From Chloroflexota bacterium (lineage in GTDB: Bacteria; Chloroflexota; Dehalococcoidia; Dehalococcoidales; JAUWPF01): a stretch of DNA of 40,144 nucleotides. The DNA lies in NCBI GenBank assembly GCA_030611745.1, contig JAUWPF010000001.1:1-40144 (forward strand), read 5' to 3'. The first letter of the stretch is position 1. The number at the start of each line of letters is the position of its first letter. A program made the position numbers and the translations under genes. Under the pieces are notes generated by a model. That model searched no databases, was not told the DNA's origin, and saw only the letters and a list, made by a program, of their open reading frames with translations. Below are positions 29,779 to 34,703 of this stretch, piece by piece.

Positions 29779-29807
29779 TTCATTTATTGTGGCGTCATCT
29801 GTATAAT
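29779..29807 (+). promoter_or_regulatory. possible promoter of the ABC-F gene
   Basis: TATAAT at 29802-29807, 16 nt before the ATG. Weak -35 TTCATT at 29779-29784 with a 17-nt spacer. Confidence 0.35.
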
Positions 29808-29823
29808 TACTTAGGTTGTAGAA

Positions 29824-31809
29824 ATGCTGGGTATTTCAGACATATCAAAGTCTTACGGGGATCAGACTCTATTCAGTGCTGTTACCTTTAATATGGGGGC
29901 AAGGGACCGCATAGCTATCATCGGGCCGAACGGCTCAGGGAAGACGACGCTGTTCGGTATTATCGCTGGGAATGTGCTCCCCGATTCCGGCAGTGTAAAT
30001 ATGCAGAGGGGAACTACAATTGGCTATCTGGAACAGGAAATTAGACCCTCTTCTGAGAGGCAATTGCTTGATGATGTCGCTAACGCGTCAACTAGGATAA
30101 GCAAGCTGGCGCATAAGATACAGGTTCTCCAAGAAGAATTGGCAGGGGGAGTGGATGGGGAAAGTTTGAAAGAACTCCTGCATGAGTTGGGTGAACTTCA
30201 GCATAGCTTCGAGTTTGCCGGTGGCTACAGCGCCGAACATGAGGCCAGGGCTGTCCTTTCCGGGTTAGGATTTGTGGAGTCTGACTTCCACCGCCCTCTA
30301 ACTGACTTCAGCGGTGGGTGGCTGATGCGGGCTGCACTGGCCAAACTTCTTCTTCTTTCCCCTGATGTACTCCTGCTTGATGAGCCGACAAACCATCTCG
30401 ATCTGGAGTCCTGTATTTGGTTTGAGCGTTACCTGGGAAGCTATCGTGGGGCGGTACTGGTCGTTTCGCACGACCGGGCATTCTTGAATCGAGTGGTAAG
30501 CAAAGTGCTTGCCATCGAGCAAGGTAAGTGCATCTTTCACCGTGGCAATTACGATAGTTTCGTTATAGCCAGAAAGAAAGAAATTGAGGTTACGGAAGCT
30601 ACGGCCAAAAGACAGAATCTCAAGATAAAGAAGGAGATGCGCTTCATCGAACGATTCCGTGCTAAGAATACCAAGGCAACTCAGGTTCAGAGCCGAATGA
30701 AACAGCTGACAAAGATGGAAAGAGTGGTAATCCCCAGAGCAACCAGGAAAATGCAATTCTCCTTCCCCGAACCGGTACGGAGCGGAGAGAGGGTTATCAC
30801 CCTCAATCATATCCTCAAGTCTTACGATGCAAATGTCGTTTACCGCGACCTTAATCTGGTCCTTAATCGTGGAGATAGGGTAGCTCTGGTAGGCCCCAAC
30901 GGTGCCGGTAAAACGACCCTGCTCAAGATCCTGGCCGGAGTGCTTCCTTTCGATAAGGGCGAGCGTAAATTAGGACATAATGTCATCACTGCCTATTATG
31001 CCCAGTACCAGCTTGAGCTTCTCGATCCAACAAATAATATACTGACTGAGCTGCAGAGCGTAGCTCAAGATGAACCAGAGCAGAAACTGAGGAGGATTCT
31101 CGGCGCCTTTCTCTTCAGCGGTGATGATGTATATAAAAAGATATCCGTCCTTTCCGGGGGTGAGAAGAGCCGCTTGGTGCTAACCAAGATGTTGATTCAA
31201 TCGGCCAATTTCTTGCTGATGGACGAGCCTACTAACCATCTTGATATTGCCTCGCGGGAGATACTGGCAGATGCCCTTGAAGCCTATCGCGGGAGCCTTT
31301 GTTTTATCACCCACGACCGGACGCTAATTCGCCAGATTGCAAATAAGATCATCGAGATAAGGGATGGCAACCTACAGGTATTAACCGGAAATTATGAAGA
31401 CTATCTCAATTGGAAGGAGTCTTTAGGACAAGGAGTTTCAAAGATTTCCGAAGTGCCGATGTCCTTAGCTATAGGAAAAGGTGCGACAAATAATAGACTG
31501 CGCCAGCGTAAGCTAATCGAGGGGGAACTAAGGAATAAGTATTACCGGGAGAGTGCCCCCACTAGAAAGCGAATAGCTGAAATCGAGGCAGAGCTTTCGG
31601 AGCTTGAGGCACAGTTTAGAGAAGTCGAGAGCTTGTTTTCCGATGAAGATCATTATGGATGTAGTGCGCAGGTTATCGCCACCATAGAGAAGCATCACGG
31701 ACTGAAGGAGATTATAAGTTCGCTTATAGAGGAATGGGAGCGGCTTTCTATAGAACTTGAGAGGATGAAACGAGAGTTTGAGAAAGCGAAGAGTACCACC
31801 GAGACTTAA
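29824..31809 (+). CDS. ABC-F family ATPase (two ABC cassettes, no membrane domain, C-terminal coiled coil)
   Basis: 661 aa. Two Walker A motifs (GPNGSGKTTLF; GPNGAGKTTLL), two ABC signatures (FSGGWLMR; LSGGEKSR), two Walker B motifs (LLLDEPTNHLD; LLMDEPTNHLD). Charged helical tail. Confidence 0.9.
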   Translation: MLGISDISKSYGDQTLFSAVTFNMGARDRIAIIGPNGSGKTTLFGIIAGNVLPDSGSVNMQRGTTIGYLEQEIRPSSERQLLDDVANASTRISKLAHKIQVLQEELAGGVDGESLKELLHELGELQHSFEFAGGYSAEHEARAVLSGLGFVESDFHRPLTDFSGGWLMRAALAKLLLLSPDVLLLDEPTNHLDLESCIWFERYLGSYRGAVLVVSHDRAFLNRVVSKVLAIEQGKCIFHRGNYDSFVIARKKEIEVTEATAKRQNLKIKKEMRFIERFRAKNTKATQVQSRMKQLTKMERVVIPRATRKMQFSFPEPVRSGERVITLNHILKSYDANVVYRDLNLVLNRGDRVALVGPNGAGKTTLLKILAGVLPFDKGERKLGHNVITAYYAQYQLELLDPTNNILTELQSVAQDEPEQKLRRILGAFLFSGDDVYKKISVLSGGEKSRLVLTKMLIQSANFLLMDEPTNHLDIASREILADALEAYRGSLCFITHDRTLIRQIANKIIEIRDGNLQVLTGNYEDYLNWKESLGQGVSKISEVPMSLAIGKGATNNRLRQRKLIEGELRNKYYRESAPTRKRIAEIEAELSELEAQFREVESLFSDEDHYGCSAQVIATIEKHHGLKEIISSLIEEWERLSIELERMKREFEKAKSTTET

Positions 31810-32078: not shown

Positions 32079-32675
32079 CTATGCGACTTCCCCTCCCTCC
32101 TCTTGGACAGCAAGTAAGGGGTTAACGACTAACTCTTTCAGCTTCTCGCTAGAAGTTATTTGATAAAGTGGTATAGTGAAGGTCTCAGAACCCTTTAAAT
32201 TTTCCGAGTATTTGGAACCGCCAGTCCTTCGCCATCCCTCAAGGGCCTCATGCGACTTTCCGAAGAACCAGTATTTGCACATGTAATAATCATAATTCTT
32301 GTTGGCCACTTTAGCCGTCATAGGTTTCTTGTATTTAATGCAGCCGGCCGAGATCAGAGGCTCATCAATATCAGTGGGTAGGCTGGTATTTAGGTCCGAT
32401 GCAAAGTGAATGCTTACGAAAAGAATCTGGTCGATGCTCGGGTCATCACCACCTGAGGCTATGGGTACGTAGAAACGCACGGCCCATCGCGCATACCATC
32501 GCTCCGGCGTATTCAACGAGTATGAAAAACCAGAAGGTGCGGTAGTATTTGTTGGCTCCCACCCATGCTCTCCCATCAGGCGGTCGGCATCCATAAGCAG
32601 AAGCTGTCCCTGCTTGTATAATTTTGCTAGAGACTCAAATAAAGCCCTTGTTGGGCTTCCCATAGTTTCAGTCAT
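32079..32675 (-). CDS. hypothetical protein, 198 aa, no family recognised; downstream partner of the predicted nuclease
   Basis: The ATG overlaps the upstream stop in an ATGA junction (32672-32675). GAGGTGA Shine-Dalgarno sits about 6 nt upstream. No TM segment or known motif spotted. The region looks more AT-rich than its flanks. Confidence 0.6.
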   Translation of the reverse strand: MTETMGSPTRALFESLAKLYKQGQLLLMDADRLMGEHGWEPTNTTAPSGFSYSLNTPERWYARWAVRFYVPIASGGDDPSIDQILFVSIHFASDLNTSLPTDIDEPLISAGCIKYKKPMTAKVANKNYDYYMCKYWFFGKSHEALEGWRRTGGSKYSENLKGSETFTIPLYQITSSEKLKELVVNPLLAVQEEGGEVA

Positions 32676-33478
32676 CTCATCACCTCGAATACATAATCGA
32701 TATCTAACGACTCAGGAATAACCGGCCAAGAATACTTGGTTGGAGTAAGGTGGTAGAAGTCAGGTAAAACGAAACACTCAGTAATGGGCTCCACTCCGCC
32801 GAACATTATTAGTCCTTTTCTCAACAATAATGCGAGCATATCTGCCATTACAGCCCTATTCTCCGGGACGCTTTCTTGCTCAAGACTTTGCTCCAGAATG
32901 GGTGGTAAAAATCTCCACGATACCCAAAATATTTCACCATCTTTGTTACGTTTGCGCCGATATTCGGCCAGTGACTTCACCAGCAGGTCTCGTGGAATTC
33001 CCATGTTTTGGGTTACGAAAAGAAGCGCACGTGAAGCGATTTCCAAATGTGTCCCCCAGCCTAAAGTGGCACAGGACACTGCGTCTAGATTATCCAGTTC
33101 ACGAGCTAACTGGTCGTTTGGTTCGGCTCGCTCGTCTTCCTCGCTGGAAAGCCCCGAATAGTACTTGGCTTCAATCACTACCAAGTGCACCTGGTTTTCT
33201 TCTGTTTCAAGACAAAGTACCACATCTGGTTCACAAGGAGTGCGGTTTGCTAATTTCAGCCAAGGCCAGAATGAATAGTGAACCCTGATGACTTCACCCT
33301 GGATTGTCAGGATATTGCCATGAAGCGAGTGGGCTGTCTGCAAGAATGGAATTAAGGCTTTCTGAGCTGGCAGATATCTCATACAGCCAAAAATGTCAGA
33401 AGTAAGGAGGTCCTCCATGCGCTCGGAAAGGTTGGTGCCTGTTTCCGAGATTTTCCCTCGTATCTCCGCTATGCTCAT
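32672..33478 (-). CDS. predicted PD-(D/E)xK-fold nuclease, 268 aa
   Basis: Motif layout is an N-terminal acidic helix (ERMEDLLTSDIFGCMRY), then CEPD85VVLCLE, then after 17 residues LVVIE103AK105YY, then a downstream DQLAREL helix. That is the classic D...(D/E)xK arrangement. The C-terminal ~100 aa is unassigned. Confidence 0.65.
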   Translation of the reverse strand: MSIAEIRGKISETGTNLSERMEDLLTSDIFGCMRYLPAQKALIPFLQTAHSLHGNILTIQGEVIRVHYSFWPWLKLANRTPCEPDVVLCLETEENQVHLVVIEAKYYSGLSSEEDERAEPNDQLARELDNLDAVSCATLGWGTHLEIASRALLFVTQNMGIPRDLLVKSLAEYRRKRNKDGEIFWVSWRFLPPILEQSLEQESVPENRAVMADMLALLLRKGLIMFGGVEPITECFVLPDFYHLTPTKYSWPVIPESLDIDYVFEVMR

Positions 33479-33515: not shown

Positions 33516-33660
33516 TTGTCAGGATTGGAGTGAACCCCTGAGGCTGGACACAATGGGTTAGGAAGATTAGGAAGGTCTGGCAGGGTCAGAGTATAATCGA
33601 TAGGAGAAAGGACCTTATACTCTCCAATGAGTGAAAGTCATAAGTCATCTAAAAGTGACC

Positions 33661-34500
33661 CTACTGTACCTCATTCGCCTGCCTTAAATTCCATATCACT
33701 TCGAAGAAATGCCGCGTCCACTCATTGGCTACCTTCCGGTTAGCGCAGAAGGTGATGCGTAAGTCAGGATGAAGGGCATATAGCTCGGCAATTGCTTTGG
33801 CGCAGAAGCCGGGATTATAGTGATGCAGCTTCTTGGGGTTCAGAAAATCGGCATAAGGGGCCTCGATTACCAGGGCATGGTTATCATGGGCAGCCAGCTC
33901 GGCAAGCCTCTGGTGCAGTACCGGCATCGTTCCGAAGTCGGCCAGCAGGTTGTCCAGTGTCTTGCGCTCCACTACCGCCAGCATCTTATCCCCATCTATA
34001 AGTGCATAATCACCGGCAGAAATAGTGCCGCGCTCAGTAACCGCGCCGGGGAAACGCCACGGGTATTTCTCGTTGCTGTGTATTCGAACAACCATTTCGG
34101 TATCGCCCTTGCGTGAGACCAGTTTAAAGGCAGGGCGATGCTGTTCGATGGACCTCTGGGTCAGCCAGAAGATTTGCTCGTAGCTCTCACCCGGTCTGCC
34201 CTTGTACGTCTTCTTCAGGAAGAGAAAATCGCAGCGCTTGTAGCGCTTGCGGTCGAGCACAACGGAGATACGGCGGCCGCGCTCATTGAAGGCGATGATA
34301 TCCACCCGCTCCAGTTCTTCCAACACCTCATCGGGTGGTGGCGGCTCGTCTTCACGCAGGCAGAAAATATGCCTGCCCGCCGCCGGCCATCGGTCCTGCG
34401 TACGGAGTACCAGCCACAGCTTATCCCCTCTCAGAATCTGCAGGCGGTAAGGGAAGCGGTCACTGACACATCGCTCTAGAATCCAGGTTCCTTTTATCAC
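33661..34500 (-). CDS. ERCC4 (XPF/Mus81-type) nuclease-domain protein with an unrecognised N-terminal domain
   Basis: 279 aa. The C-terminal half carries GDYALIDGDKMLAVVERKTLDNLLADF (GDY-x12-ERK-x2-D), then ALVIEAPY. The N-terminal ~135 aa has no motif I recognise. GTG start; TATAAT (34513-34508) lies 7 nt upstream. Confidence 0.7.
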   Translation of the reverse strand: MIKGTWILERCVSDRFPYRLQILRGDKLWLVLRTQDRWPAAGRHIFCLREDEPPPPDEVLEELERVDIIAFNERGRRISVVLDRKRYKRCDFLFLKKTYKGRPGESYEQIFWLTQRSIEQHRPAFKLVSRKGDTEMVVRIHSNEKYPWRFPGAVTERGTISAGDYALIDGDKMLAVVERKTLDNLLADFGTMPVLHQRLAELAAHDNHALVIEAPYADFLNPKKLHHYNPGFCAKAIAELYALHPDLRITFCANRKVANEWTRHFFEVIWNLRQANEVQ

Positions 34501-34648
34501 TGTGATGATTATACCGCAAAAGTCAAATCCGCAACGAACTTATCATCGAATCGTTCAATTGCCCTGTTAGTCCTCTCCCGAGTTTGCGCTGGAAGTCTGT
34601 GAATCTGTCGGTGGAAAAGGCGGTCTTTAAAAAATTTAGCCAAAAGAC

Positions 34649-34679
34649 TTGACAAAGAGGGGCAATTGTGTTTTACAAT
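34649..34679 (+). promoter_or_regulatory. mraZ (dcw cluster) promoter candidate
   Basis: TTGACA at 34649-34654 and TACAAT at 34674-34679 (spacer 19; or TTACAA with spacer 18), about 55 nt upstream of the mraZ ATG. Confidence 0.5.
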
Positions 34680-34683
34680 GGTA

Positions 34684-34703
34684 GAAAGTGGTGGAAAGTG
34701 GTA
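34684..34703 (+). promoter_or_regulatory. tandem GAAAGTGGT(G/A) repeats, candidate MraZ operator
   Basis: GAAAGTGGTG GAAAGTGGTA is a perfect 9-nt repeat with 10-bp period, immediately downstream of the -10. MraZ is known to bind direct repeats of this periodicity in its own promoter region. Confidence 0.5.

Follow-up and report, generated by a model that had tools for sequence, protein, structure and literature searches.

The window analyzed here is a stretch of 40,144 nucleotides from a Chloroflexota bacterium of the order Dehalococcoidales (contig JAUWPF010000001.1), and the gene in question lies on its minus strand. The gene encodes a protein of 279 residues in which an N-terminal β-barrel is joined to a C-terminal nuclease domain of the ERCC4 type, and it is preceded by a TATAAT hexamer so placed that the mRNA would be leaderless. 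ERCC4 nucleases are textbook repair enzymes of eukaryotes and archaea; to our knowledge, the bacterial members have no assigned function, and the family described here has no characterized member. An initial annotation, made from the sequence alone, had called the gene a stand-alone bacterial ERCC4/Mus81-like nuclease with an apparently leaderless GTG start, and had proposed for it a role in defense or in dealings with mobile DNA.

The features of the locus, with the evidence for each in brackets, are as follows.

33661..34500, minus strand: coding sequence of the 279-residue, two-domain nuclease (open reading frame listing; homologues; ratio of nonsynonymous to synonymous substitution rates, dN/dS)
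34162..34500, minus strand: eight-stranded β-barrel, residues 1-113, with a LigD 3′-phosphoesterase-like fold (AlphaFold models, Foldseek)
34096..34161, minus strand: short helix (residues 115-121, with the near-invariant His121) and a lower-confidence linker to about residue 135 (secondary structure in the model; predicted local distance difference test, pLDDT; conservation)
33664..34095, minus strand: ERCC4 (XPF/Mus81/Hef-type) nuclease domain, residues 136-279 (Pfam PF02732, Foldseek, profile alignment to Hef 1j22)
34078..34080, minus strand: codon of His141, where ERCC4 nucleases have their first metal-binding Asp (VDSRE of Hef, D676 of human XPF) (alignment to Hef)
33961..34014, minus strand: catalytic core GDY-x12-ERK, residues 163-180, followed by TLDN (D183, N184) (sequence, invariance)
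34508..34513, minus strand: –10 hexamer TATAAT, putative promoter of a leaderless mRNA (sequence, conservation in homologous loci)

An ERCC4 nuclease domain joined to a β-barrel

In the open reading frame listing, the coding sequence runs on the minus strand from a GTG start codon (34500..34498) to a stop codon at 33663..33661. No in-frame ATG, GTG or TTG lies further 5′ within the open frame, and the homologues have a common N-terminal beginning, M-(x)-K/Q-G-T-W, at the same start position. The gene is intact, real and strongly constrained. The motifs from which the initial annotation had recognized a nuclease are present in the protein as GDY (residues 163-165)-x12-ERKTLDNL (178-185) and ALVIEAPY (209-216), and the assignment to ERCC4 was upheld by both profile and fold. 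The profile search suggested at that time, with Pfam PF02732 (ERCC4), gave a match to residues 151-264 at 27.3 bits (E 3.9e-6), above the gathering cut-off of 24 bits; relatives of the protein score between 26 and 47 bits.

A full-length AlphaFold model of the monomer, built on an alignment of 91 diverse homologues, reached a pLDDT of 93.7 and a predicted template-modeling (TM) score of 0.80, with pLDDT above 95 throughout the nuclease domain. When the C-terminal half was used as a Foldseek query, it matched A. pernix XPF (E 3.8e-5), the nuclease domain of Hef (TMt 0.73) and also human XPF, FANCM and Mus81, all with probability 1.0. The family profile and that of Hef (1j22) aligned motif by motif, covering VDSRE, GDY, ERK and the later Glu. 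In a profile search against solved structures, the match to Hef was marginal and the long form of the protein (see below) matched a winged helix; a single-sequence search of the nuclease protein against solved structures returned no match.

Residues G163, D164, Y165, E178, R179 and K180 are invariant in the 91 diverse homologues and in 121 close ones, and E144, H196, E213, R255 and W261 are invariant or nearly so in the same sets. The part of PMC3620063 that cites Enzlin and Scharer (2002) gives D676, E679, D704, E714, R715, K716 and D720 as conserved residues of human XPF, and GDXn(V/I)ERKX3D as the definition of the nuclease motif. The GDY-x12-VERK part of this motif is present and invariant. 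Of the acidic pair on the first strand, the Glu is retained as E144 and the Asp is replaced by His141; of the 121 proteins of the close clade, 92 have His at this position, 28 Asp and one Asn, and in the wider family it is Asp in at least 90%. After the ERK triplet, the order Asp183-Asn184 stands where Hef has Asn-Asp. The assignment to ERCC4 is right, with His141, the swapped Asp-Asn pair and a missing (HhH)2 domain as caveats.

The archaeal short XPF and Hef enzymes (A. pernix XPF, 2bgw/2bhn; P. furiosus Hef, 1j22-1j25) and eukaryotic XPF and Mus81 have the ERCC4 fold, the GDxn-ERK core and the first-strand Glu in common with the bacterial protein, and presumably also the one-metal-site chemistry and the preference for branched DNA. 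Unlike these enzymes, the bacterial protein is without the (HhH)2 domain, the helicase-like domain and the PCNA motif, and has in their place the N-terminal barrel and, in other phyla, also a C-terminal winged helix. It further differs from XPF and Hef in the first Asp, which is His in this lineage, and in the Asp of ERKx3D, which is Asn with an Asp one residue earlier; the bacterial family is also sporadic and sometimes plasmid-borne.

The N-terminal region, about 135 residues that the initial annotation could not assign, has no match in Pfam, NCBIfam, PADLOC or PHROG; structure prediction, suggested there as a way forward, gave it a fold. AlphaFold predicted eight β-strands and a short helix, with a pLDDT of 93.7 for the full protein and of 89.2 for a second model of the N-terminal domain alone. 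The top three PDB matches that Foldseek returned for the barrel alone were all LigD 3′-phosphoesterases (CkoPE 3p43, PaePE 3n9d and 3n9b), and the alignment with 3p43 gave TM-scores of 0.64/0.65 over about 130 columns (E 2e-3, probability 1.0). The phosphoesterase of M. paludicola (5dmp) stood lower in the same list, no other match was above a TM-score of 0.31, and a viral structure library held no match for the barrel. The LigD phosphoesterase fold is an eight-stranded barrel with a 3-10 helix, and its active site holds two His and an Asp on manganese and an Arg, a His and a Tyr on phosphate (PMC3082917). The two thus have in common an antiparallel barrel of eight strands and about 115 residues, with a short helix after it.

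Homology at the level of sequence was considered and rejected, since LigD_N (PF13298) had no match in the nuclease protein at E up to 1 and none genome-wide at E up to 10, and since hhalign gave the barrel a probability of 0.2% against 22 Chloroflexota phosphoesterase domains; the relation is one of fold only. In the one short stretch that hhalign did align, the His, His and Asp of the phosphoesterases face Thr/Cys11, Pro17 and Arg19, and the manganese and phosphate residues listed in PMC3082917 are not conserved. No conserved His is present inside the barrel, the sole near-invariant one being H121 in the helix that follows it. The barrel has a different set of invariant residues of its own (W38, P39, C47, R49, E64, G75, D83, R84, R89, Q109 and T114), and it is fused to a nuclease, not to a ligase or polymerase. 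A search with the N-terminal domain for stand-alone barrel proteins returned only fragments of the same family. As modeled, the barrel is a phosphoesterase-like fold without phosphoesterase catalysis, and would be the first case in which the LigD phosphoesterase fold has been co-opted without its active site. Most plausibly it is a module that binds DNA ends or junctions, and it possibly holds a new active or ligand-binding site.

A conserved TATAAT before the start codon

The coding-strand sequence upstream of the GTG reads GCGGTATAATCATCACAGTG, in which TATAAT (34513..34508), a perfect match to the –10 hexamer, is followed by 7 nt and then by the start codon. No Shine-Dalgarno sequence precedes the nuclease gene; an AGGAGG-like site stands 6-14 nt ahead of most of the window's other genes. 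Both the spacing and the missing Shine-Dalgarno sequence were read here as the initial annotation had described them, and the leaderless start proposed on that basis gains comparative support from the homologous loci. Of 22 distinct homologous loci, 13 carry a perfect TATAAT 7-11 nt 5′ of the start codon, and the bases around it vary. The spacers between hexamer and start codon likewise differ from locus to locus (CATCACA, CAACGGC, CATCTCA, TCTGGTA, GCATCTCG, CATGCCAGTA and others). Many of these loci also have a TTCAAG-like element 18 nt upstream of the TATAAT, an element that is not found in the window. Taken on its own, the hexamer of the window would be weak evidence, and it is the conservation across homologous loci that lifts it above chance.

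Bacterial transcription usually begins about 7 nt after the –10 hexamer, and a 5′-terminal AUG or GUG is enough for leaderless translation in several phyla. With such a start and a spacing of 7-11 nt, the mRNAs of the TATAAT-bearing loci would have their 5′ ends on the start codon or 3-4 nt ahead of it. The conserved spacing between TATAAT and start codon would then be a neat comparative example of leaderless translation, from GTG and ATG starts, in the Dehalococcoidia. Between loci in differing contexts, similarity reaches only about 20-60 nt 5′ of the start codon and goes no further than the stop codon, so the unit that they have in common is a promoter and an open reading frame.

A conserved block of about 20 nt, GTCACTTTnAGATGA, follows directly after the stop codon in the window (33640-33660) and in a subset of the other loci (L006, L007 and L008). 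In L008 this block resembles an upstream motif, TTTCGATGAAA, a likeness that is not general. Regulation by LexA was considered and rejected, since matches to the Cheo-box are no commoner than chance would give, and the one near the nuclease gene falls inside conserved codons.

Distribution, neighborhoods and rate of evolution

Database searches returned 946 homologues, and the best 120 of the 946 are Dehalococcoidia proteins that are 73-94% identical over the full length and, save for one entry of 260 residues, 272-309 residues long. An exhaustive search gave 635 cluster representatives. Most of the distant representatives are 345-370 residues long, have the same two domains followed by a C-terminal winged helix and are referred to here as the long form; the majority of the family carries this helix, whereas the Dehalococcoidia branch is without it, and has lost what is present in other phyla. 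Distant relatives occur in Spirochaetes, Gemmatimonadales and delta- and gamma-proteobacteria, and homologues of 30-36% identity are found on plasmids of Mycobacterium, Rhodococcus, Pseudonocardia and Streptomyces. The sole annotation of family members is “ERCC4 domain-containing protein”, apart from some Rhodococcus plasmid copies that are annotated as Lsr2. One protein of the family is fused to a nucleotidyltransferase-HEPN pair, and a subfamily of 470 residues (L036, Cysteiniphilum, P0311) carries the N-terminal barrel twice in tandem. In the PHROGs and phage genomes we found nothing but an ERCC4-only match in a Halorubrum virus, and in literature searches the architecture of barrel and ERCC4 domain, with or without winged helix, was not found described. 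What is new is a bacterial family, spread over several phyla, of LigD phosphoesterase-like barrel, ERCC4 nuclease and often winged helix, an architectural variant of a known nuclease.

Within the order to which the window belongs, a match is present in 14 of 363 genomes (6 of the 131 of high quality), and stops or fragments were found at 8 of 16 matched places; many truncated copies of the family are also present in the databases. A second copy in this assembly (G000 contig C47, L003 1498-1908) shows 96% DNA identity to the gene, beginning 61 nt ahead of the start codon, and an IS21 element (istA/istB) truncates it near codon 131; its contig is 3.2 kb long and of uncertain binning. Among contigs of at least 20 kb, the nuclease gene lies within 1.75 kb of the contig end in 6 of 11, compared to 1.2 expected (P 4e-4), which means that assemblies tend to break beside it. 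The gene is accessory, and often lost or broken.

The survey of neighborhoods that the initial annotation had called for bore out its description of the gene as stand-alone. The nuclease gene is solitary at all loci, with no recurring partner gene, and the homologues are not consistently found in conserved repair operons, nor was any found within one. The neighbors in Dehalococcoidia comprise complex I genes, a peptidase, a mechanosensitive channel, NAD biosynthesis genes and DnaG, and further a PIF1-WYL helicase, a MazF pair and IS110. Among the long-form loci, one adjoins a cas4-cas1-cas2 cluster, one adjoins a Fic gene, that of Cysteiniphilum lies between Gabija-like OLD-TOPRIM and UvrD genes and a phage-type integrase, and three are in plain chromosomal settings. 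The copies on actinobacterial plasmids have as neighbors either a serine recombinase with ParA or a Tn3-type transposase with a recombinase, or else lie among toxin-antitoxin genes. Contexts of defense or mobility are thus present at some loci only (IS21, IS110, MazF, CRISPR, Gabija with integrase, and plasmids with Tn3-type transposase or resolvase).

Two of the plasmid homologues, from Mycobacterium and Pseudonocardia (L062 and L073), stand beside a serine recombinase, in one case with a Tn3-type transposase, which suggests that they are transposon cargo. Direct repeats were considered as the ends of a cassette and rejected, since only 1 of 17 loci, which was not that of the window, had a significant upstream/downstream repeat. 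The initial annotation had derived a role for the gene from a two-gene nuclease module that lies downstream of it in the window; this argument falls away, because the module is absent beside all other homologues and the juxtaposition is local.

Both domains of the intact copies are under purifying selection, with dN/dS of about 0.08 at saturated synonymous sites. To set this rate of evolution against that of FtsA and FtsZ, the window's copies of all three proteins were each compared with the same five genomes, with the following amino acid identities.

Nuclease protein: G074 89%, G315 85%, G179 81%, G155 81%, G075 78%
FtsA: G074 84%, G315 74%, G179 78%, G155 73%, G075 79%
FtsZ: G074 82%, G315 75%, G179 78%, G155 70%, G075 78%

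The nearest genome by FtsA and FtsZ is also the nearest by the nuclease protein. Trees of the six genomes, built from the nuclease protein and from FtsA and FtsZ, are both star-like with no supported branch, and so do not tell vertical descent with loss from transfer within the order. The region 5′ of mraZ is not syntenic between the window and the nearest genome, G074, which deprives a search for an empty site in that genome of its informative value.

Proposed role, alternatives and adjoining genes

These results suggest that the protein is a metal-dependent DNA endonuclease of ERCC4 fold, and a member of a widespread bacterial family. From the retention of the catalytic residues E144, D164, E178-R179-K180 and E213 in the C-terminal 145 residues, we infer that, like its relatives in archaea and eukaryotes, it makes single-strand cuts in branched or junction DNA. 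The barrel would stand in place of the (HhH)2 domain as a substrate-recognition module that grips a 3′ end or a single-strand/duplex junction, and the invariant polar residues R49, E64, D83, R84, R89 and Q109 would mark its binding site or possibly a second active site. The gene would form a self-contained unit of a promoter of about 45-60 bp and an open reading frame, most likely transcribed from the conserved TATAAT into a leaderless mRNA with its 5′ end on the GTG or 0-4 nt away. Action on foreign or mobile DNA, be it in defense or in the maintenance of a mobile element, is slightly more likely than accessory repair of the chromosome. For this reading as a whole, namely an ERCC4-fold nuclease with a recognition barrel, expressed as a leaderless unit and with a role in mobile DNA slightly favored, we estimate a probability of about 0.6. 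What the data show directly are the folds, the conserved motifs and promoter, the distribution and the purifying selection; cleavage activity, substrate, the part played by the barrel, the 5′ end of the mRNA and the role in the cell are inferred. Single-gene defense nucleases of PD-(D/E)xK type (Shedu SduA, type IV restriction enzymes) are likewise stand-alone, with an N-terminal recognition domain and a C-terminal restriction-endonuclease-like nuclease, and they also have a patchy distribution and frequent loss in common with the ERCC4 family; unlike them, this family matches no PADLOC model, is not concentrated in defense islands and evolves much more slowly.

Several observations weigh against this reading. 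The first metal-binding Asp is replaced by His141, a substitution that the initial annotation did not mention, and the position of the X3D aspartate is N184 (Asn in at least 90% across the family) with D183 one residue earlier; with both canonical Asp residues exchanged, catalysis may be altered or lost. No (HhH)2 domain is present, in that the modeled protein ends at the last helix of the nuclease domain and has no HhH profile match; this lack and the shifted Asp, like His141, go unmentioned in the initial annotation. The link between the barrel and the LigD phosphoesterases is one of fold, with neither sequence signal nor catalytic residues. The window has no acceptable –35 hexamer, for which reason a consensus promoter scan did not report the site. 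As to a role in mobile DNA or defense, the initial annotation was right in that such contexts do occur at some loci; for the rest, most Dehalococcoidia and long-form neighborhoods are made up of ordinary housekeeping genes, and the nuclease protein has no match in PADLOC (E up to 1) or in PHROG. Conservation like that of FtsZ is unusual for a defense gene, and conservation at the level of FtsA and FtsZ fits a repair enzyme better than a gene in an arms race. The gene is dispensable in most genomes and often decaying, yet under FtsZ-like constraint where it is intact.

An alternative is an accessory nuclease of chromosomal repair or recombination. It would correspond in bacteria to the short XPF/Hef of archaea and trim 3′ flaps, 3′ ends that are blocked, or forks that have stalled; it would be inherited mainly vertically, have been lost in most lineages and play no part in mobile-DNA conflicts. 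Conservation at or above the level of FtsA and FtsZ in the same genome comparisons, the low dN/dS at saturated synonymous sites and the agreement on the closest genome would all be expected of such an enzyme; so would neighbors that are mostly housekeeping genes, the resemblance of the barrel to a DNA-end-healing enzyme and the missing match to defense models. It is harder to reconcile with a match in only about 4% of the genomes of the order, half of the matched places decayed, with a gene that shares no operon with repair genes at any locus and whose LexA-box signal is not above chance, and with a second copy disrupted by an insertion sequence (IS). The enrichment at contig ends speaks against it too, as do homologues on plasmids and beside Tn3-type transposase, resolvase, toxin-antitoxin, Gabija and CRISPR genes. 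We consider repair a possible, though less likely, role. The preferred nuclease reading could also be carried further, to a bifunctional enzyme that processes DNA ends or acts against mobile elements, in which C47, R49, E64, D83, R84, R89 and Q109 would form a new site in the barrel, a second catalytic or ligand-sensing one. In such an enzyme, recognition by the barrel of 3′ ends or replication intermediates of the invading DNA would permit the ERCC4 domain to cut. If true, this would be a single-gene, structure-sensing defense nuclease that evolves unusually slowly; we consider it unlikely.

The limited extent of similarity between loci, about 20-60 bp of promoter and the open reading frame, is what a selfish, free-standing homing-type endonuclease would leave if it were copied as a cassette into cut sites lacking it during their repair, and the solitary gene at varied intergenic sites, the two copies in this assembly and the frequent decay would agree with such an origin. 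However, no conserved target site or flanking repeat accompanies the gene (a repeat was significant in 1 of 17 loci), the saturated synonymous divergence between copies means no recent spread, the sequence constraint is very strong, unlike that on typical homing endonucleases, ERCC4 enzymes recognize the structure of DNA and not its sequence, and the second copy is on the 3.2-kb contig of uncertain binning. A homing cassette is therefore highly improbable. Equally hard to credit is the idea that the protein of this lineage has lost catalysis and serves as an ERCC4 scaffold or binds DNA, even though H141 and N184 occupy the places of XPF D676 and D720 and ERCC4 folds that only bind DNA exist in defense systems (bioRxiv 10.64898/2026.08.31.748284). 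LlaI.R1 and the eukaryotic ERCC1, Eme1 and FAAP24 have the same fold, which serves in a bacterial conflict system or as a scaffold that binds DNA, and these inactive paralogues have lost the whole catalytic motif, nearly all of which the 279-residue protein keeps. Moreover, E144, D164, E178, R179, K180 and E213 are invariant in the His and Asp variants alike, His is able to bind metal ions, and selection on the nuclease domain is equally strong.

The module downstream of the nuclease gene is the following feature, a side observation.

32079-33478, minus strand: two-gene operon with a 4-nt overlap of its genes

Its 268-residue PD-(D/E)xK-like protein matches the PADLOC candidate PDC-M15A (E 4.7e-10) and is unrelated to the ERCC4 gene; the 198-residue partner protein has no family match. 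The gene of the 268-residue protein begins with ATG, with TATAAT 8 nt upstream and no Shine-Dalgarno sequence, and is a second leaderless-looking unit in the window. At 29784-29823 on the plus strand, TATAAT stands 16 nt before the ATG of an ABC-F gene (29824-31809) that is also without a Shine-Dalgarno sequence, which would imply a very short leader.

On the other side of the nuclease gene, the plus strand upstream of mraZ (34649-34703) carries TTGACA, a 19-nt spacer and TACAAT, followed by two 10-nt direct repeats, GAAAGTGGT(G/A), that look like MraZ operator repeats. This mraZ promoter points away from the ERCC4 gene across an intergenic region of 231 bp.

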